Positions 18,825 to 62,413 of a DNA stretch of 64,000 nucleotides are shown here, piece after piece. Under the pieces are notes generated by a model, which saw only the letters and a list, made by a program, of their open reading frames with translations, had not been told where the DNA came from and ran no database searches. Source of the stretch: Convolutriloba macropyga (taxonomy: Eukaryota); NCBI RefSeq assembly GCF_964194025.1, contig NC_134471.1, forward strand, positions 37,758,001-37,822,000. Reading direction: 5' to 3'. The position numbers and the translations under genes were made by a program. Numbering within the stretch: the stretch's first letter is position 1; every line of letters starts with the position of its first letter.

Positions 18825-19124
18825 AGTAGTGATGTGTCTTTCTGGGCAAACTACGGGGGGGGACATAAGTGTCTTCCCGTGAACACTACGGGGGGAACAC
18901 AAGTGTCTTCCTGGGCAAACTACAGGGTGGGACATTTTGAAATTCTTTCTCCTTATTTCCCCTGCCATGCATGAAACTAATCTTAGGAAACCATTTTCCC
19001 TCCACTTGCGTGACTGGTTTGCCGCTTTGGGCTTGAAGCTATTTTAACTACCACCGCTTTTGCTTTGAAAGTGAATTCGTCATATGTCTGCGCCAGGGTA
19101 CTTTAATCTTGTTTTGGTCTGGGC
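18825..19124 (+). repeat. Left terminal inverted repeat of Maverick 1
   Basis: Reverse complement of 35842-36140; about 3 differences seen by eye. Confidence 0.96.
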
Positions 19125-19280
19125 AAACTACGGGGGGGGGGACATAAGTGTCTTCCCGTGAACACTACAGGGGGGGACACAAGTGTCTTCCCGGTCAAAC
19201 TACAGGGGGGGACATAAGTGTCTTCCCGTGAACACTACAGGGGGGACACAAGTGTCTTCCCGGTCAAACTACAGGGGGGG
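19121..19280 (+). repeat. Subterminal ~31-bp G-run tandem repeats (about 5 units)
   Basis: ctac(a)GGGGGGGaca(t/c)aagtgtcttccc units; the same unit occurs inside the TIR. Confidence 0.9.
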
Positions 19281-19494
19281 ATTTTTTCTTTGTTTTTCTC
19301 TGAGTCCTATGGAGGGGAGGGGGGACACTTGCATTTTAAAAAAAAAATCAGTTTAAGGAAACCAACCAGGAAGAACTTTAAAAACCTTGGGGGAAAAGGA
19401 GCTGTCATGTAGACACAAACAAAAAAAGTAATTATCATACCCTGCAAAAGTCACCTAATTTTTATTTGTCTATAATGCTTGCTCAAAAACAGCA

Positions 19495-19910
19495 TGACAA
19501 CAACAATCGCGACGGTAGATTTAAAAACCATTCATGAAATCTATATTTTAATAAAAACAGACTATCCAGAACATAATGAAAGATTTCTTTACTTTTTGGC
19601 AACCTGCTTGCACTTGGACCCTGATGTTAACCCCGAAATTGCACTAAAACTGAGGCCTTATGGTGGGATCATTGGAATAGATAACTCTTCATTGGATACT
19701 TATTTGAAATCATTTAAAGTGCTTCGCTTACATGCAATTCTTCATGATGCCTCTGGATTTATTGCAGAGTATAGCCAAAAGGGTCCAGGATACTCTTACG
19801 TTTTGCCTTGTCCAATCACAAACGCTTACGTTGGTCACCTGACAGGTTTGTTCTTCTGCATGTTCGTGAAAACTTTTAAACGTAACTTATTCAGTTTGCT
19901 GGAACGTTGA
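19495..19910 (+). CDS. Conserved Maverick accessory protein, tentatively PLA2-like (YGGxxG...HAxLHD...GPGY)
   Basis: Open ORF; motifs conserved in the Maverick 2 homolog at 57075-57491. The function is inference. Confidence 0.7.
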
Positions 19911-20497
19911 GTCCGGAGATTGTTGTTATAGATTTTGAAGGTTTTCGACACAAAAAGAGTGGATTCATTATAAAAGAATTATCTATTTGTTCAAACAACT
20001 ACTCAGACACGGTTCTTTTTCTTCCTCCAATTTCCTTTAACTCGCTGTCCTCGAGTGAGAGGAAATCGCATCAGTGGGTATCAAAGCATTTGCATGGTAT
20101 TTCGTGGGACAGCGGCAGCTACCCTTACTGGTTTCTATCACAAATATTTATAGCAATCAAGATCCGTTTTCCTACTGCTAAATTCTACGGAAATGGGAAG
20201 GAGAAGACGGAGACACTGCAAAAACTCCTTCAAAAAGACGTCACAAATTTAGAAACATTGCTATGTCCAAAAATTGAAGAAATCTTCACTCCAGTAGAGC
20301 ACTTGACTTGTTCACTTCATTCATCTATACTACCATTCAAACAAAAGAAAAAGCATTGCGCAAAGAGAAAGGCACAGGTGTACTTTTATTGGATAACACT
20401 ACCAACTAATGAATCGTCGTGTGGAGAAAGCAACTCCTTCAGTTCTTCAAGTGAATTTATCTCCAAATTTGACAGTATGCAGTTGCATTGCGAGTGA
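19907..20497 (+). CDS. DEDD/DnaQ-like 3'-5' exonuclease family protein
   Basis: VVIDFEGF..IIKELS Exo I motif, HGISW, C-terminal HCA; no in-frame ATG (ACG at 19904 may be a mutated start). Confidence 0.75.
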   Translation: MSPEIVVIDFEGFRHKKSGFIIKELSICSNNYSDTVLFLPPISFNSLSSSERKSHQWVSKHLHGISWDSGSYPYWFLSQIFIAIKIRFPTAKFYGNGKEKTETLQKLLQKDVTNLETLLCPKIEEIFTPVEHLTCSLHSSILPFKQKKKHCAKRKAQVYFYWITLPTNESSCGESNSFSSSSEFISKFDSMQLHCE

Positions 20498-20738
20498 TAA
20501 CCAGTTGACAGTGACTTTTCTGAAAGAAGAAAAAATTGATTCTCGTGGACAAACTATACTGAGGAAGCAGCAAATACTTTGTAATACTGCTGAAATTGAA
20601 ACACTAAAGAAATATCTTTCACTGCTGGAGTACTTTCAAATGTATCATGTCTTTACAAGAGAAAATGAAAAAACTGAAACTAACCCCTTTACCTACGCCC
20701 AAGTATCCAGTGCCAGTACCAGTACCCCTGGACGATGA
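20409..20738 (+). CDS. Maverick hypothetical protein (109 aa)
   Basis: ATG-started ORF in tightly packed cassette. Confidence 0.5.
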   Translation: MNRRVEKATPSVLQVNLSPNLTVCSCIASDNQLTVTFLKEEKIDSRGQTILRKQQILCNTAEIETLKKYLSLLEYFQMYHVFTRENEKTETNPFTYAQVSSASTSTPGR

Positions 20739-20913
20739 GTGTGTCCCCGATGAAATCAAAGAGGTAGTCAGAGAAGGAAAGGTGGAGTCAATTGTCTACT
20801 ATGGCAATGACTACGGATTCCGAGCGAACTATAAAGTAAAATATAAGAAGGAAGACAAAAACTCTGAATTTGTTACATACGAATTTTTTATGGTTGATGA
20901 ACTAACTAAATAA
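20647..20913 (+). CDS. Maverick hypothetical protein (88 aa, Pro-rich N-terminus)
   Basis: ATG-started ORF whose stop overlaps AATAAA. Confidence 0.55.
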   Translation: MSLQEKMKKLKLTPLPTPKYPVPVPVPLDDECVPDEIKEVVREGKVESIVYYGNDYGFRANYKVKYKKEDKNSEFVTYEFFMVDELTK

Positions 20914-20969
20914 ATAAACTAACAGAATTTTTGAATTAAATTCATTTTTGAAAATCATTTGCTTTCAAA

Positions 20970-21254
20970 ATGAGTCAATCAGGAGATCAATTAGATTGCG
21001 CTGGCAGTGGAGCAGGAATCACTGACTTGGTTTTTGATGATCAAAACCAAGAGAGACGGTCTTGGAGGTTTTGCAATTCTAGATTGCCGCGCTCTGAGGT
21101 AGTTTATTTTACACAAGTTTCGATAATAGTTTTTCTTATTGTAGTTTCACTGACCAAATTAGTTTTCTTCCACCTCGATTGTGAAGAATCAACATTTTGG
21201 TTTTCATTGCTATCGTGCACAGTTGGATACGCACTTCCAAATCCTAAGTTATGA
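20970..21254 (+). CDS. Small two-TM membrane protein coupled to ATPase
   Basis: Two hydrophobic segments, PRSEV...GYxLPNPK conserved in Maverick 2; ATGA overlap with ATPase. Confidence 0.8.
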   Translation: MSQSGDQLDCAGSGAGITDLVFDDQNQERRSWRFCNSRLPRSEVVYFTQVSIIVFLIVVSLTKLVFFHLDCEESTFWFSLLSCTVGYALPNPKL

Positions 21255-21982
21255 ATAAAATAGTCTCAACGAGTGATCGTCTCTTCATGGCAGTCTGTGG
21301 TCCTTCAGGTTGTGGAAAGACCGAAATTATTTTTCAAATGCTTCTTAAGAATACGTTTTTCCCGAATTTCAAGTCAATATACTATTTCTATCAACATGAT
21401 CAACCAAAATTTCAAACGATGGAGCGTAACTTGAACATTTATTTTACCAAATTCTCGGGATTTGAGTTCATTTCACAGTTGGAAAACTGTTTGCTCGTCT
21501 TTGACGATTCTTGCGAGGAAATTTTCAATGACAAGGAGTTTTCAAAACTTGCAACAGCTGGACGCCACAAAAAGATCAGTGTTATCTATGTTAAGCATAA
21601 ATTGTTTCAACAGAGTAAATGGTCTAGAACAATTGATCTCAACACAACACACATCATTTTGTTCAAATCCCCCAGAGATATACAGCAGATAAGTTATATT
21701 GGAAAACAACTCAATAACACAAACTTTTTAAAAGACAGCTATGATCTTGCAACAAAACAACCATTCGGACACTTATTGATTGATTTAGACCCAAAAACAA
21801 TCGACTCACTACGTTATTGTTCAAATATTGTACCACCGGGGCCAACAATTTTCTATCTGCCATCTTCCAAAGCTGTAATTAACCACCTCACAAATGAGAG
21901 AGAAAGAGATATGTATGCTGAGGCGAATGCTCGAAATGCCGGAAAGCATGCTAAAAAAATTCATCAAAAAATCATCAAATAA
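21251..21982 (+). CDS. A32/FtsK-HerA-type DNA packaging ATPase
   Basis: Walker A GPSGCGKT, Walker B LLVFDD, GRH motif; intact ORF. Confidence 0.95.
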   Translation: MNKIVSTSDRLFMAVCGPSGCGKTEIIFQMLLKNTFFPNFKSIYYFYQHDQPKFQTMERNLNIYFTKFSGFEFISQLENCLLVFDDSCEEIFNDKEFSKLATAGRHKKISVIYVKHKLFQQSKWSRTIDLNTTHIILFKSPRDIQQISYIGKQLNNTNFLKDSYDLATKQPFGHLLIDLDPKTIDSLRYCSNIVPPGPTIFYLPSSKAVINHLTNERERDMYAEANARNAGKHAKKIHQKIIK

Positions 21983-22190
21983 ATTTATAAAATTTCTCTG
22001 TGAATGCTTTCTCAATGTTATAAATGGAAACGTGCCCACAGATAAAAGTTTACTTGAAAACTACGAAACATCATTCCGACATTTTCTTTCCAAAGAGACA
22101 AGTTTGAGGAAAAAGCGTCAGCTATTGGTAAAAAATTTACATCTACTTCGAAGCATAAGTCTCTCTTGTTACCTTTACTTGAAGAAGTAG
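21894..22190 (+). CDS. Conserved basic Maverick protein (CECxxNVxxGNVP family)
   Basis: FLCECFLNVINGNVP motif; syntenic homolog 59673-59987. Confidence 0.75.
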   Translation: MREKEICMLRRMLEMPESMLKKFIKKSSNKFIKFLCECFLNVINGNVPTDKSLLENYETSFRHFLSKETSLRKKRQLLVKNLHLLRSISLSCYLYLKK

Positions 22191-22193
22191 TAA

Positions 22194-22989
22194 TGCATGC
22201 GGAAGAGTTTGTCTTGATACCGAAAAGAATGTTTGTGTCAAAACAACCGACTAGGACAGAAATTTTGGATAATCCCATTTATAAACAGAAAGCTGCTCAA
22301 TTGTCACTCCTCCACCGAAACAACCCAACCGATTTTGAAAGCAGAGAGGCGACTGAACAGGAAACTAATAAAACTAATATCGTGAACAAGCGCAAAAGAA
22401 GAAGAACAAGCAGTGTTGATTTAAAAAGTGAATTGGATGATGGAAGTGAAAGTGTAGTCTTTCTTTAGTGATGATGGCGAAATTGAGCCCTCATTGAAAA
22501 AAAGACAATCAGACTTTGACTCTATAATGTCAGAAGTAGAATTAATGGAAGAAAACAAAATCTAAAGAGCGGAAATCATCCTAAACAAGATATTAAGTTC
22601 AGAAACAGTTTCCATTGAGGACCCGAGTGGTTTCCTTTATATTGAGGACAAACCTATGAGAGTTAAAGTGTCAACTTTTTTGTACAATTTGCAACAGCCG
22701 ACAAAGAAAATTGACCTAGCCGTGTACACAAATATTTTGCACGAACTCAAGATACCCCCGCACTTAGTATCCAACACTCATGCTAAAAGTTCTCAAAGAA
22801 GTTTACAGCGATGAGGAGAAAGAAGAGGAAACCGAACAAATTCAAGGAGAATCAGAAAAACAACAAAGAAGCGAACAGAGCAGTGGAAGTCAAAGTAAAG
22901 CCTCCGGATCAAAAACTGCAGAACCAAAAAATCAAACAAACAAAAAGACAGAGCAGGAGACGAAAGGAAAAAAATGGGCTAACTATTAA
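22194..22989 (+). pseudogene. Maverick conserved hypothetical protein, disrupted
   Basis: MHAEEFVLIPK...TFLYNLQQ...LVSNTHAK spread over frames; homolog at 59977-60700. Confidence 0.7.
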
Positions 22990-23908
22990 AGATGTGAAAC
23001 TACTGGATAGACTCTATTCTAAAGGTCCAGCATCATTCGGAAGTTCAAAGCGATTAAAAGATTTCGGTAAACTGCCAATGACAAAAGTCAAAATGTATTT
23101 GGAAACAAAACCATCCTTCACAAAATATCGTGCACAGCGGTTGAATTTTCCGCGATTAAAAGTAATCGTCAACGATCTGAATGAAATCTGGTCTTTAGAT
23201 TTAGCTCATGTTGATAAACTTGCAAAATACAATTGTGATGTTAAATATTTGCTCGTAGCAGTTGACTGCCTCTCGAGGTATCTACGTGTTGAACCGTTGA
23301 AAACAAAAAATGCAACAGAAACCCCAAAGGCCTTCCGAAAAATGATCAAACACAAGCAACCACAAAAAGTTTGGGTGGATGATGGTACTGAGTTTTTGGG
23401 AGCTTTCAAAACACTCTAAAACAAACGAGGAATTCATTTGTATAGTACTTTCAGCAAAAAGAAGTCTGCGTTTGCAGAAAGAAACATCAGGTCACTTAAA
23501 AATATTATTTACCGATATTTGGAGGAAAAATGGACGTATTCTTATATTAACAATTTGGATCAATTCGTAAAATCTATCAACTCCCGTGTTAATCGTGTCA
23601 CCAAACTTGCTCCTAACAAAGTTACCAAAAAAGATGTACCAAGACTTGTATCATTAACTGTGGAGACACGTCGCGGTCAAAAACCAAAACTTTACGTGGG
23701 TGATTTTGTTCGAATCGTTAAAAAGGAAAAAACTTTCCGAAAAGGATACAAGCAATCTTTCACTGACGAAGTTTTTGAAATTGCCGGTATTCTGACGCTT
23801 AATCCACCTACATATTCTCTTATTGATTCTAATAAAGAAATTATCCAGGGCAAGTTTTACCAGCCAGAATTACAACTAGTACGAGAATCTCCAAATCAAA
23901 ATGAGTAA
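22811..23908 (+). pseudogene. Retroviral-like (rve/DDE) integrase with one in-frame stop
   Basis: WSLDL, VWVDDGTEF, AERNIRSLK; TAA at 23417-23419, reading continues in the same frame. Confidence 0.95.
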
Positions 23909-24788
23909 TAACCGTTTTGAGGATGAGTTCACAGTACACGTTATATCATCTGCTTCGATGGACGTTTTCCAGGAAAACACTTAAGCAAATTTCAGAAATT
24001 TTTTTAATGATGAAATTAATCTCACAGGAGACTGGAGAGTGGCTCTGAGTGAAATCATTTTTCCAACGAAAATTGAACACATAGTTAATGGAGATTTGGT
24101 TGCGTTCAGTCTCAGGGGATATGAGGAATCACAAAATCGCGCAATTGGATCCAACGTCATTTCACGACCCTACAATGGAGAAAAATTAGCGTTTATGGCT
24201 GGCACTTATGATACAGTTGCTCAACTTTTAGCAAATATCAAGAGAACAGTTGGACTGCCTAACTTCTCTTTCCGAGAAATCAAAAGCAGTGGGAAATACG
24301 AAATGATTTTTGGTAAATACGAGGGAATTACCTTTCCAAGTGAAGAAATACCCAGTATAATTGGCTTTAAAGGTATTCCAGATGGTTACGGAATTCATAT
24401 TGGATACAAAATGATTCCCACAACAGCGAACCGATTAATGATAAATGATGATACGAAAGCCTATTATGGTGATTTTCCAGCAGACCTTTGCGCTGGAAAA
24501 CATTTAATTTTTATTTACACAAACATTATTGAGTATCAGTATGTGGGTGATGCGAAAGCACCATTGTTAAGAGTCATTGATTCAAAACAGCGTTTGAAAA
24601 ACGGTAGCGTTTGTGAGTTGGAGCGCACTCACAGGATAGTTTTCACAAATTTAGACTACAAAAAACTACTTTCGAACACCATTCAATCAATATCAATTGA
24701 GCTGCGAACTGAAACGGGACAGTTAGTTCCCTTTTCGGGGACTGGTAAAGTTATTTTAACACTACAATTTAAAAAATTTGGTGATTAA
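23901..24788 (+). pseudogene. Minor capsid protein (penton) with one in-frame stop
   Basis: FTVHVISSASM..EN..ANF, GDWRVALSEI, FIYTNII, VGDAKAPLLR; TAA at 23982-23984. Confidence 0.9.
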
Positions 24789-25229
24789 ATGGATTCCTAC
24801 TACGCAAACCAAGCATCATCATTGCCTCACTTTTCCGGTCACTATAGACAAAGAGGTAGCGGTTTTGGAGCATTAGCTAGCGGTATTGGACGTGTTGCAC
24901 TGCCACTTGCTCGGAAGTTTGTTCTGCCAGCAGCTAAACGCAACGGAAAAGAACTGTTGCTACTAGGCGTCCCTGAGTTGATGGATGTTATCGGTAAAAA
25001 GAAATCACCAAAGCAAGCTCTAAAGAGCACCATATCAAACACAGTGAAAAAACAAACAGGTGGATCTTTAGCCCTCCGAATGCGACGAACGAGAAGAATA
25101 AGAAGGAATTGAAAACGCTTACGCGCTGGACCAAGGAAAACAACCAAACGCAAAACCACCATTTCACGAAAAAGAGTACCAAAAAGAAGTCGGTCGGACT
25201 TCTTCGCCAAAGTAAAAGATGATCGGTAA
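24789..25229 (+). pseudogene. Basic core/membrane-active virion protein (YY..Q..QRGSG family), premature TGA at 25110
   Basis: QRGSG and QTGG adenain-like sites; R/K-rich tail continues past the stop to RSRSDFFAKV, matching the intact 62414-62863 homolog. Confidence 0.82.
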
Positions 25230-26528
25230 TATGTTACCAGCCGAAGCAACGCATAGTTCGTTGGATTTATTCGAGGAACCAGCTCTCCTTGTTACATTTG
25301 ATGGAAGTTTTTGTCAGAAATTGGGACCGGTTTACAGCCCTAATGGACCAATGCCAGAGTTTGAAGTTGCAGGAGACCGCAACAATTTCATTGATCTCCA
25401 AAAAATTTTTCTTGAAATCAAGTGCAAGATTGTACAGTCTTCTGATGCTGATTTGAAATATGACAACACTGCTGCTGCAGATGTGACTAAAACAGACTCG
25501 CCATACTTTTGCAACAATGTCCTACATTCACTTTTTTCTGATTGTACAGTATCTGCTAACGGTTTGAAAATTTCAAGTGCCAATGGTAACTATGCCCACA
25601 AAAGTTTCATCGAAACCGAGTTTTCTCACAATAAAGATGCCAAAAGCACGTGGTTGGCATGTCAAGGTTATTCTTATGAAGCAAATCCCGGGGAATTGCA
25701 GCATCCGAAATCACCAGACGAAAAACTTTAGTCAGAGCATCTGCTGAGTGTACATTTTACGGAAAGGTGGCGGTTGACTTCTTTACCTGTGATCGACATC
25801 TTCTCAGTGGTGTAACACTCCGAATCTCTTTTCGGCGATCAATTGACGATTTTTCTTTAATTTCAGATGACGCTGCAAAATCCTACAAAATAAAAATTAC
25901 AGAAGCTAACTTATATGTGCGGAAAATGACGCTGAACGATGATGTTGTGTCAGCAATAGAAAAGACCCTGCTGTCAAGTCCAGCATCCTATCCTTACCTA
26001 GAAACGATTACTAAAACTTTTCTGGCTTCTGCCGGTTTGCAGAGCTGGAAGCAAGAAGATGTTTTTGGCAGAGAACCCATTAGAAGACTCGCCATTTGCT
26101 TAAACACGAACGAAGCTTTCCTCGGAAGCAAGCTGCTTAACCCATTTCACTATAGAAAATTCAATTTGGAACAAATTTGCATTTATCGTAATGGTCTTCC
26201 CGTTGCCGATAGTCCTATTTCAACTGATGATTCAAAACGTGTTTACTTTAACACTATGTCAGATCTAGCCTATATCGACAATGGACATGGAATCAGTCTA
26301 GAAGACTACCCAAATCATTTTATTATGGTTTTCGATCTGACGAGTACTCAGCAGGCGTCTCACGATTTTATTCACCCTGAACTTACAAATTGTTCTGTAT
26401 CAATTGACCTAAAGTTTTCTGCTGCCTTAGTTCATAATGTAGAAATATTCATTATTGGGGAAAAAGCAAGTACCATTTATATTGATTCGGCGCGGAAAGT
26501 TTCAAAGAATCATATTTTAACAAACTAA
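25219..26528 (+). pseudogene. Double-jelly-roll major capsid protein, frameshift near 25700
   Basis: SSLDLF, NNVLHSLFS, YAHKSFIET, EANLYVRK, NPFHY, FDLT motifs typical of Polinton MCP. Confidence 0.92.
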
Positions 26529-26746
26529 TTGACGAAGACAACTTGAACTCTCTAATTCAGAGATGTTCGGAACTCAAATACAATTTTTGTGGAGTTTATG
26601 CGGCTGATAATTTTCCAACCAACTTAACCAACAACAGCTTCATTATAGTCAATATTTCAACGTCTGCATCAATTGGAACCCATTGGATTCTTCTCTGCCA
26701 AAAAGATCAAAAAATTATGGAACTGAACACGGTTTTGTTTGTTTGA
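26528..26746 (+). pseudogene. Adenain-like cysteine protease, C-terminally truncated
   Basis: GVYAAD, FIIVN..S.SIGTHW (catalytic His); no downstream DS.G or catalytic Cys motif. Confidence 0.85.
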
Positions 26747-26939
26747 GAAAGTCTGCTGAGAACTCCGACACGTCGATAAGAACATGGTAATGATTAGTGG
26801 GGTTGTAATCACAGTGGACACTCTCAAAATGCATGCAAAAGGCAAAGTTCTTGAGAGAAGAAAAATTAGGTTTTTCTTCCGATATAAAAATATTTAAAGT
26901 TTTTCTGAAACTGCTTGAAGAAACCCGGAGAACGCTCAT
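26715..26939 (-). pseudogene. Truncated ORF with HUH-like motif (NHYHVLI)
   Basis: ATG start, HxH followed by hydrophobic residues; stop coincides with the protease truncation point. Confidence 0.45.
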
Positions 26940-26972
26940 ACATCGCTTCCACCATTTTCTAATATATTATAA

Positions 26973-27305
26973 TTAGTCTGAATTGTCGTGCTCGTCGTCT
27001 TTTTTAGTTTTACGTCTTTTCGCTGCTGGAGCTTTGTTAGCTTGATCGTTTTCAGTAGCTGTACCTACAGCAGCAGACCGTATTTTTGCTGACCTTTTTG
27101 ACAAAAGCTCAAACTCATCTAAAGTTGGAGCAATTCGTTGTTGAAGTTCATATTCCTTGTCAACTTTTTTAAATAGCTTGAGAAATACATAGGCACCCGT
27201 ATTTTCATAAGACTTCACTGTTGCGCGTATCAATCTTTTCTCTGTTCTAGAGATTTCAAAATACACGTCTCCAAACTCTGCGTCCTTATCAGCAGTAAAT
27301 GGCAT
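26973..27305 (-). CDS. PC4-like single-stranded DNA-binding protein (putative)
   Basis: FEIS..RLIRATVKSY..YVFLKLF..I..TLDEFELL resembles the PC4/Sub1 pattern; basic NLS-like tail. Confidence 0.6.
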   Translation of the reverse strand: MPFTADKDAEFGDVYFEISRTEKRLIRATVKSYENTGAYVFLKLFKKVDKEYELQQRIAPTLDEFELLSKRSAKIRSAAVGTATENDQANKAPAAKRRKTKKDDEHDNSD

Positions 27306-28097
27306 TTTCAAGAATTGTGTACTTAAACTGTGTCAAACTACCTGTTTTGAAAGAATTTTCGGAAATGATTTTTATTTACAAGTACCTTTAACACACAAAA
27401 CACAAACAACACTTTAAATGCTTACTACTGATAAGAGCGCTCTTGGTTAACATTTAGGCTTCTGATTTGAATTTGAATGTAAGTCTAGGTTATAAAACTT
27501 GGCAATTTTGTCAAAATGTAAGACAAAACTCGTGACCCTCACTTAAACTGTTTTATTGCGTTGGTAATAAAGTTTATATTTGGATAAAATTACTCAACAT
27601 AGAGCAGGAACTAGTACAATTTAATGGAAAACAAATGTGACCTCTGGGTGTGTCGATAGATAAGAAAGAACTCACAATTACACAGCAAGCGTTTGATAGA
27701 AGGCTTTAGGCCTTTGATATAACACAGTCTATTCTAAACAAAACTGATTGTAAACTTCTTGCTATTGCATACATTATAAACGTTAGTATACATATCAACA
27801 TAATAAAACTGAAAACTATTGTGTTTAAGTCTGTGTAGATAAGACTTTCTTATACACTTTGCAACTAGTTACAAAAACATAAAATTATAACACAGACAAG
27901 TTCATGTAGAGTAAACATTCACAATTGCAGTTACAACCCTTGACCTGGGTGTGTTAAGTATTCAACAAGTTTCACACACAAGTGTTGCTAATGGTGGTAT
28001 TTGCCGGATTTTATTTATTCGTTTTAAATTCAAGACTATAGTTGTTCAGTTCTGCTCCATTTTAAAGAGAACAAACTGTAAAAGTGCTTTAAAAATA

Positions 28098-28871
28098 ATG
28101 TCTTACCACATTCTTTGCGAGTCTGAAGATTCTTGGGAGCGCAGTATTGTGTATCACACTCAATACGAAAACTACATAGTTTTTATACAGCAGAAGAAAA
28201 ATAGCGAAAAAGGCTGTTGGAGATCAGTTGAACATTGCATCATACCAAAAATGTTCATGAATTTTGTTGCAACACTACCAGATAAATACGTATCTACAGA
28301 AGACGATGGCACAAAAACTGTGCTAACAGCTGGAGGATACAGTGTTCCTCGGAAAATGCCCCCACTTTTCCCCTATGACATTGAGACACTTTCTCCAGAC
28401 ACAAAGAGACTTTTGTACCGATACGATTGTGACTGTGTGCCTATTTTTGAGAATCAACTCGGCCAATTCCAGGCGATTGAAGAACTGGCTCAACTTTGGG
28501 GAATTCAACCTTCGCCAACTTCACCAGCTACTTCACCAATTGGATCACCGGCAACGAACGACCCAAGCCCCATTGTTACGCCGGAAACAACAGATACAAA
28601 ACGAAAAACAGTCATAGCTTCAATCATGGACAAAATGTCTTGGAATATGGGGTCAACCGAGCAGTTCGAACCGAATTTCGATAGTTCTCTTCTTTCAGAG
28701 ACAACTTTTGTGACACCAACGCAGAGTGCAGAGAATGCTACAGTATCCTTCGAAACGTACAGAACCTCAAACAACACAACACCCTTGAATTCAGAGACTC
28801 CCAAAGTATGCAATGCTCCACAGAAAAAACGTGCCAATCGAACACCACTTATAGATATATTTGAGGACTAA
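28098..28871 (+). CDS. Maverick hypothetical protein with S/T/P-rich disordered C-terminus
   Basis: Open ~257 aa from ATG 28098; AATAAA at ~28928. Confidence 0.7.
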   Translation: MSYHILCESEDSWERSIVYHTQYENYIVFIQQKKNSEKGCWRSVEHCIIPKMFMNFVATLPDKYVSTEDDGTKTVLTAGGYSVPRKMPPLFPYDIETLSPDTKRLLYRYDCDCVPIFENQLGQFQAIEELAQLWGIQPSPTSPATSPIGSPATNDPSPIVTPETTDTKRKTVIASIMDKMSWNMGSTEQFEPNFDSSLLSETTFVTPTQSAENATVSFETYRTSNNTTPLNSETPKVCNAPQKKRANRTPLIDIFED

Positions 28872-29179
28872 CCTGAACTCGGAAAACTGAAACTTTTTGA
28901 AACTGTCACCATTTCTATGAACCTCTAAATAAATTGTGTGCTTTAATAATATTTTTTTTTGGTGTGAAAATGTAAAAAAATATCAATTTGCATTTCTAAT
29001 TTTAATTGAACATCATAATATCTCTTTTTTGTTTGGAGAATAAAACGGGAAAGAGAAGGCAGAATCAAAAAGCATTCCGTCAAATTGTTACTTAGTGAAC
29101 GTTGGAAGAAAATCTCATATGTTATAACACAAAAAACACAGCAAGCAAGCAAAGTTCTGTTTAAAACACATATTGAAGA

Positions 29180-30130
29180 ATGAAAGTTTTTGAAACAGTA
29201 AAAAGTCAATTTTCATATGTAGGAATTCTGTAAAAGTGCAAAAATCTCACTACTTAAGTTGTTACAAAAAAATTTTATTTCACTAAACATAGGGTAAAAA
29301 AAGGTTTTTAAATGGTAAAAAGTCAATATTCATATGTAGGAATTCTGTAAAAGTGCAAAAATCTCACTACATAAGTTGTTACAAAAAAATTTTATATTAC
29401 TAACAATAGGGTAAAAAAAGGTTTTTAAATGGTAAAAAGTCAATTTTCATATGTAGGAATTCTGTAAAAGTGCAAAAATCTCACTACATAAGTTGTTACA
29501 AAAAACTTTTATTTTACTAACCATAGGGTAAAAAAAGGTTTTTAAATGGTAAAAAGTCAATTTTCATATGTAGGAATTCTGTAAAAGTGCAAAAATCTCA
29601 CTACTTAAGTTGTTACAAAAAACTTTTATTTTACTAACCATAGGGTAAAAAAAGGTTTTTAAATGGCAAAAAGTCAATTTTCATATGTAGGAATTCTGTA
29701 AAAGTGCAAAAATCTCACTACTTAAGTAGTTACAAAAAACTTTTATTTTACTAACCATAGGGTAAAAAAGGTTTTTAAATGGTAAAAAGTCAATTTTCAT
29801 ATGTAGGAATTCTGTAAAAGTGCAAAAATCTCACTACATAAGTTGTTACAAAAAACTTTTATTTTACTAACCATAGGGTAAAAAAAGGTTTTTAAATGGT
29901 AAAAAGTCAATTTTCATATGTAGGAATTCTGTAAAAGTGCAAAAATCTCACTACTTAAGTTGTTACAAAAAACTTTTATTTTACTAACCATATGGTAAAA
30001 AAAAGGTTTTTAAATGGTAAGAAGTCAATTTTCATATGTAGGAATTCTGTAAAAGTGCAAAAATCTCTCTACTTAAGTAGTTACAAAAAACTTTTATTTT
30101 ATTCATCATATAGTAGAAAAAGGTTTTTAA
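29180..30130. repeat. Internal tandem array, 8 x ~117 bp
   Basis: GAATTC recurs at 29223, 29340, 29457, 29574, 29691, 29807, 29924, 30042. Confidence 0.97.
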
Positions 30131-30964
30131 GCTTCTAAAGAAGTTCATTTTCTGTAAATAGAATGCATTTAGTTATTCCACAACCACATTTATGGTTTTC
30201 ACCAAATGACATTTGGTAAATGTGTTATCAGTACCAGTGGTAAATATCAAATCCTTAATTTCAATTGCTTTCGACCTATCTTTGTCTTATATATAGCTAC
30301 AATTTACTTTTGCACAATGATAAGATAGAGTGTCTTTCATGGAATTACTTTATGTTCACATGAAACACGCTGATAATAGCAGTTTAGAACAATTTTAGTC
30401 AATGGTATAAGAATACTGCCAAGTATTCCAGAAACCTAAAAGTGAAAACTGATTAAAGGTTGAAAATAGAACGGAATTTCGATACAACCCTCGAAGAGTA
30501 GAGAAAGTCTAAAACAACTTTTGTAGAAGAGTATTTTGAACACTTGAACTGTTTCCCGACAGAAAAGAGTATATTGTAAGTATACTGCGTTAGCTATGTT
30601 TCAGTTGTGGTAGATAACAGATATAACTAAAATTACACAATAAACTTTTACCTTGCATGGAAATAATGGAAATGAGTAGTTCTGAAACATGAACACACCG
30701 CTTATTGGTCAAAAGTTAACATGGGTTAAATTTGACCTACACTCCTACCAAGATTTGCGTTCCAAACCTGGCAAATAGTGTCAAAGTGCATGCACACCCT
30801 TATAGGGAAATTTTTCTCGTGTAAAACACATTTTTCAACCAACTAACACTCCTTCTAATTGTACCAGTTAACTGTTGTTACAATTTGACTTCATTTGCTC
30901 AGTCGTTTTCTCAGTAAAGCAGTCAGTTGAATTTTCGAAAGAAAAAAATTGAAAAAACTTAAAA

Positions 30965-33900
30965 ATGACCCAACCGTGTGAAATTTGCGCAAAGGAACTG
31001 GCCGACAAAAGAAGCCTTCGAAGACACAAACAGCGCGTTCATGGAGTTCAACCGGAATTCCCAGCCTTGGAGTGTAGCACTTGTGGTTTTGAGACTCACA
31101 ACATCCTGATAATGAACCAACACACCCGACGGGAGCACGGTGGAAAGTCCAAAATCAGTGTGCCTACTGCACTCTGGTTTTCAAAAACCAGAGTAACTTT
31201 CATCAACATCTGAAGAATGCTCACGGATTGCCTGTTTGGAACAGAGGCCAAAGCAATAATCAAGCAGTACCAGTACAGTCGGCAATTCGAGGTGCTCTGG
31301 AGATCTACGAGATTGAAGGTAATGATCACACTGACGTTTTGTCTTTCATGAACTCTTCGAGGTATCACATCAATGAACATATACGTCAAAAGACCCTCGA
31401 AGGTCCTCAGAAAGTTCAACTTTCTCTAAGCATTACACTCACAAAGGGGATTAATGAAGAAGAAAAACACGTAACAATTTACGCTAACGCTGAAATGCAA
31501 ATTGTGTACACGGATGCTCTCTCCGAAGAGCAGTTCTTTGAGTCCGTGCAGCATATTGTCAACGTGGTTTCAATGTATGCCACAAGTGGAAGTGGTTGGA
31601 TTATTGAAAAGGTAGAAAAACTCGAAATTCGATTTGCAAAATTCAACCCTATTCGGGGATCAACCTATATAGCACTTCCAACTGAACTTAGCGCTCTAAA
31701 ATGTCTGCTCAATATCCGAAACTTTAACGATCCAAACTGTTTCTTGTATTGTTTCACGGCTGCCTACCATTTGCAGGGGAAAGGTTGCCCCCTCACGCAA
31801 CCTGGGGATCGGTACAGCAAAAAAACAAACCCCGCAACATACGCTCGCTCAAACCCTTTCACTCATCAAGCAGTAGGAAATTTCCCGATGCCGATGCCAA
31901 TTGACAAAATAAGCGCGTTTGAAAGATGTAATGAAGTAAAAGTGAACGTTTTTCGATACGAAAAGAAAAGTTTGTATCCTTTCCGAATTTCAAAGCACAA
32001 CTCTGATTTTGTCGTTGATCTCCTACTGATAACTGATGGTGAACGTTATCACTACGTGCTGATAACGGACCTGGTAAACTTAGTTCGAAAAGTGCAAGGG
32101 CGACAGATTGATGCACGCGCAAAAATCTGTCGCAACTGTTTTCATGTTTGCTCGAACAACGAAACGCTTCAAAAACACGAAAAACTTTGCTATCACTTCG
32201 AAACTTGTCAAGTTCTGCTACCTGAGCCGGACAGCAACAGTCTCGCTTTCAAAAAATTTCAAGCAAAAACAGCTCTTCCACTGGTTGTCTATTTTGACCT
32301 AGAGTCAATCATTGTTCCGGTATCATCAGTTGAACAAAACCCACAGACTTCAGGGACTCGTGTGTTGGACAAACACATTCCGAGCGGTTACTGTTATGTA
32401 GCCATTTCACATGGAAGTCCAAATTTGGAGTTCTTCCATCTGTACAGAGGTGAAGATTGCATGCAAGTCTTTGTGAAGCAAATGGAGACACTGGCAAAAG
32501 ATATCTACGAGAAAAAGCAAAAATACAGGTACTTCACAGGAGCAGTTGGACAAGCAAAAGAGCTTGCGACTCACTGTTGGATATGCGAAACTAGTTTTTC
32601 TGCGGACAACGAAAAAGTCTTGGATCACTGCCATTTCTCAAATCAGTTTCTTGGCTGGGCTCACTCAAAGTGTAACCTACAGCGCAGAACACAGAGCTTC
32701 GTCCCCATAAGCGCACACAACTTGTCAGGATATGACTTGCATCATGTTGTAAAGAGTCTACATCACTGCAACTCTAACAATAAATTTTCAATAATACCTC
32801 AAACTGATGAGAATTATATCAGTTTTAGCTTTAAAGTTTGGATCAAAGATATTGTGAACAAAAATCAAAACGTCATACCCATATACGAAGAACTTCGCTT
32901 TATCGATTCTCTTCGCTTCATGCAATCGTCTTTAGATAAACTAGTTCAGTCTTTGCCTGAAGACAGTTTCGATATACTCGATAACCATTTCGAATACTGT
33001 GACCAAAATGATGTGAAACTACTGCACGGTAAAGGATTCTACCCCTACTCCTACATGGACACCTTCAGAAAATTCAAGCTAAAAAAATTGCCGCCTAAGA
33101 AGTGCTGGGTCGACAAACTCAAATCAGGAAAAGTGACAATAACCGAAGCTGACTACGAAAAAGCAAAGCTGATCTTCGAAAAATTTGATTGTAGAAACAT
33201 GGGTGAATATCACGATCTGTACTTGACAGTCGACACCCTACAGCTCGCCTGCTGGTTTGAGCGGCTACGAGCAGTCTGTCTGGACTCGTACAGCTTGGAC
33301 TGTGCTCAATATCTATCAGCACCACACTTAGCGGGCGATGCCTTTCTGAAGATATGTCAACCCGACCTGGAACTTCTCACAGATCGCAACCATCTTGATA
33401 TAGCAGAAGAATTGTTGCGAGGGGGTATGTCCTCGGTATACACAAAAAGACTGTTCACGCCAAACAACAAATATCTGGAACGTTTTGATGACACGCAAAA
33501 ATCAACATATGGTCTCACCATAGATGCTAATAACCTCTATGGTGGGATCATGAAGGATTTCTGCTTGCCACTCAATTCATTCCAGACGGACACAGAAGTG
33601 ACGATTGAACAAATTTTGCAAACTCCAGACGACGCTGAATTTTGACATATCGTCTGCGTCGACTTGGACTACCCCGACTCAATTCACGATGCTCACCAAG
33701 ATTTTCCAATGGCACACACCCGAGAACCTGTAGACAGCATGTGGTTGAGTAGCTATCAGTTGGACCTTTTGGAAGAATATCATCTCCCAAAAGTTTCAAA
33801 GTGCAACAAACTGCTTCAAACACTCTATGATGAGAAGGATTATACACTACACTATGTAACGTTGAAGATTTATGAACGAAACGGCCTTAAAGTTTCAAAA

Positions 33901-35303
33901 CTGCACAATGTGCTCAAGTTCAGACAATCAAAGTGGATGGCAAAGTATATCGAACTGAACACAAGATTGCGGCAAGCAGCAACCAGCAAAATTGCTGAAA
34001 AATTCTTCAAACTCATGAACAACTCTGCTTTTGGAAAGTGTTGTGAAAACATGCGAAATCGAGTTAACGCTTTCCTGGTCCGAGATGAACGAGCTCTCCT
34101 CAACCACAAAGATAAGTTTAACATGAAATCCTTTAAAATTTTTGATGAAAACATGGCAGTTGTGACTACAAGAAAAACGAAAATAAACTGGGTGAAACCT
34201 ACAATAGTTGGTGCTTCAATTCTGGATCTTTCAAAAGCGTTCATGTTTCGATTTCACTACGAGAATATGAAACAGTGGTTCAAGTGTGAACTTTTATACT
34301 CTGATACGGACTCACTTACCTATGCTGTTGATTGTGATGACTTGTATGAGGAGCTAGCACGAGCAGAAGTCAACACAGAATTCGATTTCTCCAACTACCC
34401 TTCTGATAACGCATTGTACAACACAGAAAATCACATGGTAACTCTCAAATTCAAAGACGAACTGGCAGGGGTGGTAATGGAAGAGTTCTGTGGCTTGAAA
34501 CCCAAAATGTATTCAATACAAACGAAGGGTATGTGTAACATTATATTTTATTAAAACAAATTCCAGTTTTGAAACTAACCAAATTCATGGAAGCGTCTTT
34601 TTAATATAACAGAAACATTGAAACCTAGATTAGGAAAGCACATAGATTAAAATAGAAAATAGATTGATTGTAATGTTCTTTCAGACTGTCAGAAGAAAAG
34701 TGCAAAGGGAATAACACATGAGGTGCAAAAGCAACTAAAGCACGAGGTCTTCAAGAGAGTATTGAACAGCGGGGAGATTGTCCGCGTCAAAAATGTGACC
34801 ATCAAATCAGAGAAACATGAGTTGATGACACTGGAACAAAACAGATTTGCGCTTTCGGCCTACTGTGACAAGCGGTTTTACCTTGACCCAATAAACTCCC
34901 TACCATTTGGCCATAACAATATTACAGAATTTGCATTTCACAATGTTATATTAAATGATTCAGATGGGAGTCAGAAAACGAAAGCGACTTGGATTCAATT
35001 TCACAACCAACCCCGGAAAATGTGATATCTGAAAACAATAGTTTTTCTCCCCCCGATCCAGGATTCAATCAACCCGATTATTCAGAAAGTGAGCTTGATC
35101 AAGATATTGTTGACTGGAATGAACCCTACGCAATTTCCCCGCCAGCCCTTGACAGTTCTTTTCTAGAATTGGAAGCAGTTGAAAGCGAAGCAAGCAATAA
35201 TAGTGATATGTCTGATTTATCTTCAAGTAATAGTCTCATAATAGAACCAACACCAAAAGGCAGACGTCTAGTATTATACAATTCAAGCAGTGAAGATAAC
35301 TGA
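30965..35303 (+). pseudogene. polB: Protein-primed family B DNA polymerase (ZnF-TP-vOTU-Exo[EndoVII]-Pol-acidic tail), one intron, disrupted
   Basis: YFDLES, HNLSGYD, DHCH..AH..CNL, IDANNLYG, KLMNNSAFGK, YSDTDS, KSAKGI; frameshift ~31150, TGA 33643-33645, intron 34529-34684, frameshift ~34965. Confidence 0.96.
34529..34684 (+). other. Putative spliceosomal intron in pPolB
   Basis: G|GTATGT donor, ttctttcag| acceptor, AT-rich with in-frame stops; removal gives YSIQTKDCQKKSAKGI. Confidence 0.85.
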
Positions 35304-35427
35304 TAACTTACAATTAGTTGTAGTTGAAGTGCATGGATAAATTATAAAAAGCATTCATATAAACTAAATACAAATTAATGTAAAAATTGAAACTTTATTA
35401 TAAAAAGAAGACAAATAAAAGGTTTCT

Positions 35428-35775
35428 CTAACGCTGTTTTATCGGGATTCCACGACGACTAAGAATAATTTCCATGGGGGAATGACTTTTAACATGGTTA
35501 GTCAAACCATTTTGCTGGGTAAAAACTTTGAAACAAATTTTACACCTTAAAACAGGGTTTTGGATAATTAGAGGGGGCGCAATAACTACTGAATTTTCAC
35601 ACTGGTGGTATCGTGTGTCAATTAAAAGCCAAATTTTCCGATTGCAGTTTTCACATTGATATCTAAAATTGTTGGGGTGTATTTCTTCAAAATGAGTAAA
35701 AAGATCTTTAGAATTTAAAAATTTGGAGCGACACAGAAAGCAGTCCAACAAGCAACGTTTTCGCCTTGGTGGCAT
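35428..35775 (-). CDS. C2H2 zinc-finger protein (3 fingers)
   Basis: CxxC-F-L-H-H patterns; convergent with polB, AATAAA on both strands at ~35393-35420. Confidence 0.85.
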   Translation of the reverse strand: MPPRRKRCLLDCFLCRSKFLNSKDLFTHFEEIHPNNFRYQCENCNRKIWLLIDTRYHQCENSVVIAPPLIIQNPVLRCKICFKVFTQQNGLTNHVKSHSPMEIILSRRGIPIKQR

Positions 35776-35841
35776 TTGGAATTCGTATTCTGGTATTGGG
35801 TGTGTAGGTTCTGTATAACTGTGGGTAAAATGTTGAAATGG

Positions 35842-36140
35842 GCCCAGACCAAAACAAGATTAAAGTACCCTGGCGCAGACATATGACGAATTCACTTTCA
35901 AAGCAAAAGCGGTGGTAGTTAAAATGGCTTCAAGCCCAAAGCGGCAAACCAGTCACGCAAGTGGAGGGAAAATGGTTTCCTAAGATTAGTTTCATGCATG
36001 GCAGGGGAAATAAGGAGAAAGAATTTCAAAATGTCCCACCCTGTAGTTTGCCCAGGAAGACACTTGTGTCCCCCCCGTAGTGTTCACGGGAAGACACTTA
36101 TGTCCCCCCCGTAGTTTGCCCAGAAAGACACATCACTACT
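35842..36140 (-). repeat. Right terminal inverted repeat of Maverick 1
   Basis: Ends ACTACT followed by TSD AGTATC. Confidence 0.96.
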
Positions 36141-57491: not shown

Positions 57492-58061
57492 TGCTAAAAA
57501 ATTTTGGAAGCAAGTCCACAAATATTGTTGCTCTCGATCTCGAAGGTTTCAAACTGAAGTCAATTGGATTCATTGTCAAAGAACTGAGCTTGTGTTGCAG
57601 TTAATACGATACAATATTTTTCAAACCTCAAGTTAGCTTTGCAGAATTACCGGCACACGATCAACAAACTGTTATTTGGTTGAGACACAACCTGCACTGC
57701 CTCGAATGGGACGACGGCGATACACCTTACAGTGACCTAAAAGTAGTTTGCTTAAGTTTCAGTTTCCAATTTACCCGGAAATTTTTTTTTGCAAAAGGCA
57801 CCGAAAAGTGTGAGGTCCTCAGCAAGTTGTTACAGAAAAAAAGTTTACAATCTAGAAGATTTAAACTGTCCCCGCATTTCAGAAATACTTCCAGAGGAAA
57901 CAATTGCTTCTTGCAGTCTACATTCCAATAATTCTACAGCAAACTGTCAAGTATTCAATCATTGTGCAGAACGCAAAGTCAGAATATTTTTACAGTGGAC
58001 ACAAAGTGATGCACAGAAAAGAGACGGCAACAATGATATTTACTTGCTTGACTCCTCTTGA
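57491..58061 (+). pseudogene. DEDD exonuclease-like protein, disrupted
   Basis: VALDLEGF..FIVKELS, NLEDLNCP, HCAERK. Confidence 0.8.
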
Positions 58062-58464
58062 CGATCAGCCGATAGTAATATTCAACAGACTTCAAGATCC
58101 CTGTGTACCAATACAGAACAATTATTCAGTTGATCATCAGAAGCGAGAAAATTTTTTCAACAGCATACTCGGCGCTGCACAACAATCCCAATACAACCCG
58201 CTGTATAGCACAGCAGCAAAACGTTACTTCGCAACAATTACGCTATCTCCAGAAGAACTAGACAGCTTCAGAGCTTTCCTCCTTGTGATTGATAACTTCT
58301 ATCATTTCCAATTGTATGTGAAAAATAAACAGAGAGCTCAGGAACAGCAGAATCAATTTAATTATGGCTGCAAACAAAACAACCGAGAAGCCATCGCTGC
58401 CACCAAAAGAGCAGCGATTACCTCGTTGGAAACAATGAGCGGACAGAAAAGTTCCTCCCTTTAG
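58009..58464 (+). CDS. Maverick 2 hypothetical protein
   Basis: Open ORF syntenic with 20409-20738. Confidence 0.5.
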   Translation: MHRKETATMIFTCLTPLDDQPIVIFNRLQDPCVPIQNNYSVDHQKRENFFNSILGAAQQSQYNPLYSTAAKRYFATITLSPEELDSFRAFLLVIDNFYHFQLYVKNKQRAQEQQNQFNYGCKQNNREAIAATKRAAITSLETMSGQKSSSL

Positions 58465-58761
58465 GTTGAAAAAATTACTACCGGAACGTGAGCTAACTCT
58501 GAAAGAGATGCCGAATGAGTTGCGGGTTTATTTCTTGGAGCATCCCGAAGTTGTGAAAGTCTTCAGTCAACCATCGTATAAAGAAAATGACTAATCAACT
58601 GTTTGTTATAAACTAGAAATAAAAAGTCACATAAATGTTTCCATTTGTTTGAATTCTGGTATATGAAACAGTTGCCCATTGAAAACAGTGAATAAATTAC
58701 ATATCTGATATTTTGTATCGTTCTTGTTGCAATTAACTTTTGAGGCAAAAAATTATTTCAA

Positions 58762-59031
58762 ATGCATCAAAGAGACGAGGCTGATGCGGGTATCAGCAAT
58801 TTAGTGTTTGATGTAAACAACAAAGAGAGACCTCCATGGCGTTGCGGTTGCAGCTCATCGGTGCCACGGTCTGAAGTAATATTTTTTGTTCAAGTCAGTA
58901 TCATAGTTCTAATGATCATCCTTTGCTTCACTATGCTCTTTCTTTTGTCAGAAAGTTGAGAAGAAAAATCAATTTGGATTGCATTGTAGTCAAGCTTAGT
59001 TGGTTATATTTTACCAAATCCAAAACAATGA
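58762..59031 (+). pseudogene. Two-TM membrane protein, internal TGA
   Basis: PRSEVIFFVQVSII...GYILPNPKQ; stop 58957-58959. Confidence 0.8.
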
Positions 59032-59740
59032 ACAAGGTGATTCTGACACAAGACAAGATATTCATGTCAATTGTTGGACCAGCGGTTCCGGTAAGACTGA
59101 GCTGATGTTTCACATGCTGCACGGGAACAATTTTTATCCGCGCTTTGAGAAAATTGATTACTTTTACAAGGAGTTCCAACCGCTGTTCAGAGAAATGCGA
59201 GGTAGAGCAGCACGCATTGAATTCATCAAATATTCAGGATTGGAGATAACGAAGAACCTTTCGAACTGCCTTCTTATATTTGACGACTCATGCGAGGAAA
59301 TTTTTAATGACAAAGAGTTTGTAAAAATAGCTACGCCTGGACGCCATCGTAAACTTCATGTTATATATGTGAAGCATAATTTGTTTCATCAAAGCAAATG
59401 GTCGAGAACAATTGACCTAAACACCACTCATATAATTTTTTTCAAAGCACTGCGTGACATTCAACAGATTGAATACCTTGGAAAACAGTTGACCTGTCTC
59501 CAATTACTCAAGGACGCATACAAATTAGCAACAGCTGAGCCATACGGACAATTAATCATTGATCTGGATCCAAAAACAAGTCAAGGTTTACGATTTGCAT
59601 CACAAACTATTGGACCTGATCCTTCAATTTTTTACATTCCTGCACAAGAAGCAGTCATCACACCATTTATGAATGAAAAAGAGACACTTGCTTATGCTCA
59701 AGCAATGGGCAAAAAGCACAAACAAGAACTCCATCAATGA
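59028..59740 (+). pseudogene. Packaging ATPase, frameshift in Walker A
   Basis: GP/SGSGKT, LLIFDDSCEEIFNDKEF, GRH. Confidence 0.92.
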
Positions 59741-59987
59741 ATCCAAACTAGTTAGAGACAGCGACTTCATTTAGTTTCTGAGTGATTGAGTGATGAACGT
59801 ACTCTCTGGAGTTGTTCCAGTCAATAAAAAAGAACTGAAAAAGTTTGAAAAAACTCTGCGTCAACTTTCGAACAGGAAAGTAGGGAAAACGGAACGATTA
59901 AAACTGATTAAATCTCCCTCGGGCACCAATCTCATTCAACTCATAGCATTACCCTGCATTGTGTATCTGGAACAAAGTGCATACTGA
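59673..59987 (+). pseudogene. Homolog of 21894-22190, disrupted
   Basis: MNVLSGVVP; in-frame stops upstream. Confidence 0.65.
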
Positions 59988-60700
59988 AGAGTTTGTGTTA
60001 ATACCTAAGAAGATGTATACAAGAGAACAACCTCATTTATCTCAATTGCTCAGCAACAAAGATGTTCACAACCCAGACAAGCAGATATCGCTTCTCCAAA
60101 GAAACAAGTCACCATCAGCTCCCCCTGCCTCGCAACTGGATACTGAGCAACAAATTGACGCTTCAGTGGATGATAGAAGTGCAATAAACGAGGCTATGGA
60201 AAAATCATTTATGACAGACAACACATCAGCTATCAGACAAGGAGTGTTGAATGATATTAAAATCTTGAAAGGGATAAAATTTGAAAGAGCGAATGAAACA
60301 CTCGAGATAATAGAGGAATCCGATTCAGTGTCTTGGGACTCATCAAAAAAATTGCTTATCAGAGGTTCAAATACGGACCTCCTTGCTGCTACATTTCTCT
60401 ACAATCTACAGCAAACCACTTGTAAACTATCTTTCGAACATTTCAGTATATTAGCACTTCTCGATATTGGTTCACATTTGACTTGTAACACATACGCCAA
60501 AAAGTTTCTAAATTTATCATCTTAAGAGAAACTGGAATATTTGGAATATGAGTCAGACAAGGAAATTGCTTCAAAATCCCGCAGAAAAAAAGCAAAAGCT
60601 TCTGACAAGGACGAGGGAAGCTTTGAAGAATCAGAAGAAGAAATCAAACCAACCAGCCTCTGGGAAAATTACTTCCTACCAAGTTAAACAGTTAGACAAG
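59977..60700 (+). pseudogene. Homolog of 22194-22989
   Basis: HTEEFVLIPK, TFLYNLQQ, HLTCNTYAK. Confidence 0.7.
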
Positions 60701-61583
60701 TTGTACACTAAAGGCAGTGTTGCATTTGGTAGTACTGCTAAATTAAAGAAGGCTAGTGGTATACCAGAGTTAAAATTAGCCGCTATCTTCAGTCGAAAGC
60801 CCTCTACACGAAATAAAGACAATTCAGGAAAAGATTCCCCCGACTGAAAGCTGTAGCATAGAGAATAAACCAATTCTGGTCGGTTGATGTTGCGTATATG
60901 GATAAAGTTGCCCAACACAACAATGGCGTAAAATATTTATTAGTGGTTGTGGACGTTTTATCGCGTTACTTACGAGTTCAACCAATGAAGGCTTTATATT
61001 CAAAAGATGCTGTTGAAGCATTCAAAAAATGATCAAGAAAAAACAGCCAGAAAAAGTATGGACAGACAAGGGATCAGAGTTCAAAAGAGATTTAAAAAAA
61101 TTTTGTGAAAAGAAGGGAATTCATTTAAACACAACAGAAAACGAAACCAAGTCAGCATTTGCGGAGAGGAACATTCGATCGCTTAAAAACATTATTTACA
61201 AATATTTGGAGGAAAAATGGACTTGGACGTATAATAAAGATTTGCCCCAGTTTGTAAATACAATAAACAGTCGTGTTAACCTGGTTACCCAATTAGCACC
61301 TAATGAAGTGTTCAAAAAACATGAACCATTTTTAATATCACTAGCAATCGACACAAAAAAGTACAAACCAAAATACAAAGAAGGAGACCTTGTTCGGATT
61401 GCAAAGCCTGACGAAAAATTCAGAAAAGGTTATAAACAAAATTACACAAACGAAGTTTTCACGATATTCAAAATTGCAACTGTGAGTCCCCCAACGTACA
61501 ATCTTATAGATGCAGACAACGTTATAATTCAATGTAAATTTTATGAACCGGAATTAGTCCAAGTAAACGTGTTAGACGAATAA
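60548..61583 (+). pseudogene. rve integrase, frameshifted
   Basis: WSVDVAYMD, VWTDKGSEF, AERNIRSLK, FYEPEL. Confidence 0.92.
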
Positions 61584-61584
61584 A

Positions 61585-62412: not shown

Positions 62413-62413
62413 A

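Follow-up and report, generated by a model that had tools for sequence, protein, structure and literature searches.

Mavericks (Polintons) are usually described as elements with intron-free core genes. As far as the accessible portions of the two reports go, the genes of intact vertebrate elements are without introns (PMC8097293), and the core genes of nematode Mavericks are intronless, with introns present only in cargo genes (10.1101/2022.07.12.499685). Intron-type sequence has been reported inside the maverick-polinton-like elements of dinoflagellates, where the introners are, in the available text, young multi-copy intron-generating transposons acquired mostly after integration (PMC11957031), and the available part of PMC12220804 describes group I introns in cryptophyte PLVs. 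IVS3 of the Drosophila P-element is likewise a 3′-proximal intron in the gene of a key enzyme, and its retention yields a truncated protein, although the enzyme is a different one and regulated retention, a silencer and a repressor product are P-element features in the accessible sections of PMC7776569, whereas the present intron is known from DNA alone. The available text of PMC10748475, PMC8502044, PMC11296320, PMC6431247 and 10.64898/2026.07.28.741278 contains no mention of a spliceosomal intron in a Maverick polymerase. No published report of the intron presented here surfaced; the founding 2006-2007 descriptions and Repbase entries fell outside the scope and could mention such introns. 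What we read as a spliceosomal intron, conserved in position across polymerase families only 50-60% identical, contradicts the usual description and implies nuclear, spliceosome-dependent expression through a long viral history.

The window, the whole 64,000-nt stretch of DNA analysed and the frame for all positions given below, contains a Maverick which resembles the vertebrate and nematode elements in its terminal inverted repeats (TIRs), 6-bp target site duplication (TSD), protein-primed family B polymerase (pPolB), rve integrase, packaging ATPase and probable capsid gene, but differs from them, as described in the accessible parts of PMC8097293 and 10.1101/2022.07.12.499685, in that its pPolB appears to carry an old inherited intron where their core genes are intronless. 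The features of this element are as follows.

18825..36140, no strand assigned: Maverick/Polinton element 1, 17.3 kb, ends AGTAGT...ACTACT, TSD AGTATC (6 bp) on both sides
18825..19124, no strand assigned: left terminal inverted repeat
21248..21982, + strand: packaging ATPase (Pox_A32), single ORF; PF04665, E 2e-6
22787..23908, + strand: rve integrase, broken by a stop in the window copy; PF00665, E 3e-6, below the curated cut-off
25216..26528, + strand: probable major capsid gene, frameshifted in the window copy; no Pfam hit
30965..34528, + strand: polymerase exon 1, with C2H2 fingers, terminal-protein-like domain, OTU-like motifs, exonuclease with HNH insert, and palm and fingers up to KxY
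34685..35303, + strand: polymerase exon 2, with SAKG motif, likely thumb (~90 aa) and acidic tail with PPDPGxxQ motif
35842..36140, no strand assigned: right terminal inverted repeat

The terminal repeats form 269-nt arms that are 99% complementary. In sibling copies of the element, the ATPase, the integrase and the probable capsid protein are each encoded by one frame: the integrase is one frame of 380 codons in two of the four siblings examined and the probable capsid gene one of 437 codons in three of four. This conserved 437-codon ORF is probably the major capsid gene, judging by its resemblance to known ones. Pfam gave no match for the window polymerase pieces, while PF03175 is carried by many of their homologs; this domain, a phi29-like model of a relative and the terminal-protein-like domain place the polymerase in the protein-primed family B. 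The OTU and motif names used for exon 1 are presumptive in part. The remainder follow PMC11161782. The window copy of the polymerase gene carries two frameshifts, one near 31100-31150 and the other near 34964, and a stop at 33643-33645, so it would yield no full polymerase even if spliced.

An insert interrupts the polymerase gene between the two exons, with the following features.

34529..34684, + strand: predicted phase-1 GT-AG (U2-type) intron, 156 nt, 26% GC
34529..34534, + strand: 5′ splice site GTATGT (GTATGT in 36 of 37 siblings, GTATAT in one)
34552..34554, + strand: in-frame stop reached on intron retention, 8 codons past the donor
34664..34684, + strand: weak branch-point-like TTGAT, pyrimidine-rich stretch and CAG acceptor

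The initial annotation had claimed that the PolB frame stops at 34552-34554 and that a spliceosomal intron is responsible, and the stop is present as described. The insert begins with GTATGT, ends with TTCTTTCAG and is poorer in GC than the coding DNA on either side (40-42%). Its donor is placed after codon base 1, giving phase 1, and downstream of the insert the polymerase frame restarts with the SAKG motif. The match to intronless polymerases that had been proposed as a check is borne out, since YS and SAKG are separated by 9 codons once the insert is removed and a linker of 9-10 codons is found in 19 of 20 contiguous close relatives. TTGAT could, at a guess, serve as the branch point. Neither a junction repeat of ≥3 nt nor a terminal inverted repeat was found at the insert, Rfam returned no match for it when tested for a self-splicing group I/II intron, and RNA structure prediction gave no folding signal (z 0.14). 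In reads of one sample, comprising four runs that behave as DNA, cover over the intron is even and no 34528>34685 joint is seen, a pattern that does not bear on splicing.

Sibling copies in the same genome share the insert. All 40 scored sibling matches (of 180 candidates) span it, GT is kept in 37/37 distinct siblings and CAG in all 36 that cover the acceptor, and among eight older copies GTAT..TCAG is kept in seven with the acceptor lost in one. Diversity among siblings is 0.032 in the insert and 0.019/0.016/0.027 at codon positions 1/2/3. Genome matches to the insert all lie inside polymerase copies (40/40 scored, of 82 candidates). A pattern search for intronless copies of the window family, weak because it required exact matches, found none in the genome, and no open frame >381 aa was present around 150 scored exon-2 matches (of 2384 candidates). 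The presence of the insert in every sibling, together with its lack of junction or terminal repeats and the confinement of its matches to polymerase copies, indicates that it travelled with the element. A post-integration insertion or an active introner mimicking an intron has its precedent in the dinoflagellate elements (PMC11957031, accessible text), but is contradicted by these observations and by occupation of the same site in distant families, and we consider it vanishingly unlikely. The present intron is thus set apart from dinoflagellate introners, as the available part of that report describes them, by being old, restricted to a single site, absent elsewhere in the genome and carried by its lineage. 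The two findings named in advance as speaking against an intron, siblings without the segment and a TSD around it, were therefore not obtained, and there is strong support for a spliceosomal intron in this Maverick polB.

The same site is occupied in divergent Maverick families of the same genome (G000), which share 50-60% amino acid identity. All 12 loci carry an insert, and in 11 a frame-restoring phase-1 GT/GC..YAG pair delimits 139-340 nt, with the donor lying 13 or 16 nt downstream of YS and the YAG 14 nt upstream of SAKG. Among 105 metagenome and viral loci, 82 were contiguous, 10 had inserts and 13 were unscorable; the 82 contiguous loci, out of 92 scorable on both sides, are without exception more distant relatives. 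Inserts of ~60-100 nt were found in eight close relatives from four metagenome assemblies, in six of which a script identified a phase-1 GT..YAG pair (59-101 nt) and in a seventh (L096) the pair was identified by eye. Divergence and short introns suggest that these metagenome carriers belong to other host species. A first scan of viral contigs gave no match and a second gave 25 distant relatives, with an insert in none of those scored. Inserts at L108 and L131, outside the clade, were rejected as they are not GT-AG introns at the polymerase site. For carriers overall, inserts measure 59-340 nt; their donors are GT or GC, and the YAG lies 14 (or 17) nt upstream of SAKG.

We compared offsets among 12 family representatives, picked for having a GT/GC..YAG pair. 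In all 12 a GT/GC donor lies 13 or 16 nt downstream of YS, and a YAG 14 or 17 nt upstream of SAKG, which exceeds what chance would produce; for such offsets the naive probability is ~0.009 per family, a figure to be read with the offsets having been set after seeing the data and the families sharing descent. Intron interiors are free to vary, the window intron aligning no better than shuffles with 10 of the 11 other representatives. Exon 2 is 41-92% identical among representatives with synonymous sites saturated, and between eight G000 families pN is 0.06-0.43 and pS 0.61-0.95, which shows purifying selection on this exon. Insert lengths fall in all three classes modulo 3. Donors vary and many are non-consensus (GTATGT, GTTAGT, GCAAGT, GTTGGT), the last 15 nt hold 6-15 pyrimidines and a branch-like pentamer is present only in some introns. 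Taken together, ends that are fixed around a freely varying interior, the occurrence of GC-AG variants and selection on the exons form the signature of a spliced U2 intron, and the 156-nt insert is very probably a genuine host-type (U2) spliceosomal intron. Two separate genes, recoding or a self-splicing intron would also fit a junction read from genomic sequence. They are extremely unlikely, however, in view of the fixed YAG and GT/GC, the lengths in all classes modulo 3, the lack of Met in the sequence immediately preceding exon 2 and the absence of an Rfam match or folding signal.

Individual loci show further variation. One family has a GC donor, GCAAGT (L066, L069, L071, L080), and its sister family (L070) has GTAAGT. 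L066, L079 and L089 have no clean acceptor and we read them as decayed copies. In L067:953-1292 (G000:C1) the exon-1 end and donor are tandemly duplicated (219 nt) inside the intron, giving two donors, and comparable repeats of motif blocks stand ahead of the donor in proteins P0001, P0006 and P0016, with one in the exon-2 tail of P0010; the segment at the exon-1 end has undergone duplication more than once.

Database proteins show the consequences of the intron for annotation. Among the top 55, 33 lose homology exactly at the intron site and 20 continue into SAKG, the intron state being taken from where the proteins end and not from DNA. After the loss of homology the 33 show donor-like residues, G/S/C followed mostly by K, E, N or a stop. 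P0051 was unparsed and reads as contiguous, and P0026 represents a duplication of an unrelated kind. Contigs of 225-717 kb carry some of the intronless members, which are therefore genomic, while P0010 and P0030, intronless and on short contigs, could be transcripts. Surveys scoring 'intact' elements by ORF would label polymerases of this clade truncated, as 33/55 of the closest database proteins end at the intron site.

A tree of the exon-1 region was built from 52 of 99 rows, leaving out near-duplicates, most outgroups, P0024 and P0184. All 33 rows with the intron fall into a single clade (support 95/97) together with 13 intronless rows, and within it two intronless rows are nested in a 99/98 subclade of carriers. 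The intron label requires at least 6 changes on the tree (bootstrap 5-8), of which no more than 2 are forced by starred branches; the tree does not resolve the base of the clade and gives no direction of change, so that the number of losses is soft. Several independent gains at one favoured hairpin-turn site would account for the unalignable interiors and for the interspersed intronless members, a single-change history being found in 0/200 bootstrap trees. Against this, carriers are alike in phase and in an acceptor 14 (or 17) nt before SAKG, all of them fall in one clade with no GT-AG insert here in the more distant relatives scored on DNA, and exon flanks vary so that there is no shared proto-splice sequence; we regard repeated gain as improbable. 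A single old origin of the intron is in our view highly likely, and one old gain followed by several precise losses is the simplest reading and a probable one. Precise intron loss usually points to a cDNA template. The intron gain proposed in the initial annotation therefore stands as a gain, but not as a recent or local one, the other families, metagenomes and tree indicating an old event that spans the clade and was followed by losses.

The position of the intron relative to the polymerase fold can be placed on the predicted model of a natural intronless relative, P0045 (pLDDT 76.6), where it falls just after LKPKMYS (motif KxY), in the turn that links strand 298-303 to strand 306-311; the intron site is thus predicted to be the hairpin turn following this motif. 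A sequence search of solved structures gave weak matches only, and the best structural match of the C-terminal model is phi29 polymerase (E 2e-3, probability 1.0). The KxY motif belongs to the palm and the thumb comes after it, and phi29 polymerase lacking its 13 C-terminal residues is impaired in DNA binding, according to the accessible portion of PMC1475753. From this motif order and deletion effect, together with the model, exon 2 likely encodes the thumb, the intron following the KxY palm motif. At the other end, the N-terminal region of the window protein, located in exon 1, has a confidently predicted fold (pLDDT 93.7) with a Y-family polymerase match over ~117 columns and resembles the little-finger/PAD fold (best E 7.6e-4). 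The same Y-family likeness is described for terminal-protein domains of Polintons in the available part of PMC11161782, and the N-terminal Y-family LF/PAD-like fold is held in common with Polinton pPolB's TP-vOTU-EXO-PALM layout. Beyond the Polinton and phi29 layouts, exon 2 adds an acidic, disordered and clade-specific tail of ~100-220 aa, which follows the 80-100 aa found in distant relatives. Its often basic end may, at a guess, be a nuclear signal. In the window the tail spans 34959-35303, and its PPDPGxxQ and NPFI..EA motifs are present in all nine contiguous or read-through clade proteins shown. Adenoviruses express a related protein-primed polymerase, E2B, from nuclear spliced mRNA in which the splice adds a tiny N-terminal piece. 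The present intron, in contrast to this N-terminal splice, lies inside the polymerase domain.

The polymerase gene of the element would be transcribed in the nucleus, where the host spliceosome would remove the intron, so that the protein gains its likely thumb and its acidic tail with the basic end. Splicing would be ordinary and largely constitutive, with retained transcripts as dead ends through the premature stop, probably by nonsense-mediated decay, and clean intron losses would probably have arisen by recombination with reverse-transcribed mRNA. As for the splice-dependent control of replication that the initial annotation suggested, no conserved intron sequence was found among the representatives compared, poly(A) hexamers are not in excess (7 observed against 6.9 expected) and synonymous sites near either splice site show no constraint. 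The same intron position in many distant relatives makes it very likely that this Maverick lineage needs the host splicing machinery.

A regulated switch resembling P-element IVS3, the precedent as given in the accessible text of PMC7776569, would make different use of the same arrangement. Intron retention would yield a thumb-less protein with terminal-protein-like and OTU-like domains, acting as surplus primer protein or repressor, and splicing would license replication in the germline or for virus production. The intron is the sole interruption seen in the core genes compared, no second one being found in the polymerase in family-to-family comparisons, and it is placed towards the 3′ end; for 20 of the 22 introns examined, a retained copy runs into a stop within the intron, many donors are non-consensus, and the terminal-protein-like domain is encoded by exon 1 and would survive in the retained product, which keeps the switch attractive. 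It is nevertheless an unlikely reading, as neither conserved intron sequence, poly(A) excess and RNA structure nor synonymous constraint near the splice sites was found, many lineages without the intron still form multi-member clusters, and the 63-nt intron of L084 is in frame without a stop. In that locus (protein P0034) retention would add 21 residues and cause no truncation. Extended to the whole clade, a switch at the palm-thumb junction would have the retained form act either as repressor or as terminal protein that the OTU-like protease sets free, and the spliced form as complete polymerase, with the spliceosome or piRNA-guided chromatin timing replication and intronless members as escapees through reverse transcription of their own mRNA; this fuller version we hold to be about as unlikely. 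With no regulatory signal found and intronless lineages persisting, ordinary splicing is favoured over a P-element-like switch, and splicing is likely to be mainly constitutive. We accordingly lean, with reasonable though lesser assurance, towards the reading as a whole, namely a U2 intron gained once in the clade ancestor, kept in position, cleanly lost several times and removed by ordinary splicing. Retention of a single intron across synonymous saturation in the face of its loss elsewhere could however mean more than housekeeping. The 34528>34685 junction is a single, easily assayed target for testing element expression and splice regulation. With no reverse transcriptase among the element genes examined, the clade also illustrates how a DNA virus-like element can lose an intron precisely and more than once.

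Elsewhere in element 1, a tandem array of ~9 units of 117 bp (29033-30130) lies upstream of the polymerase gene and is present in siblings, and the window copy lacks ~730 nt found in siblings at 26718/26719, just after the probable capsid gene. A second Maverick (window ~57500-64000 and L186:1745-6212) has a polymerase of a different type, with 24% identity and contiguous at the equivalent motif, and therefore provides no test of the intron in Maverick 1. The two elements have ATPase, integrase and probable capsid genes in common (~36-70% identity by segment), and a polymerase swap between their lineages is likely. Maverick 2 is followed by LTR-retroelement-like gag/pol from L186:7949 onward.
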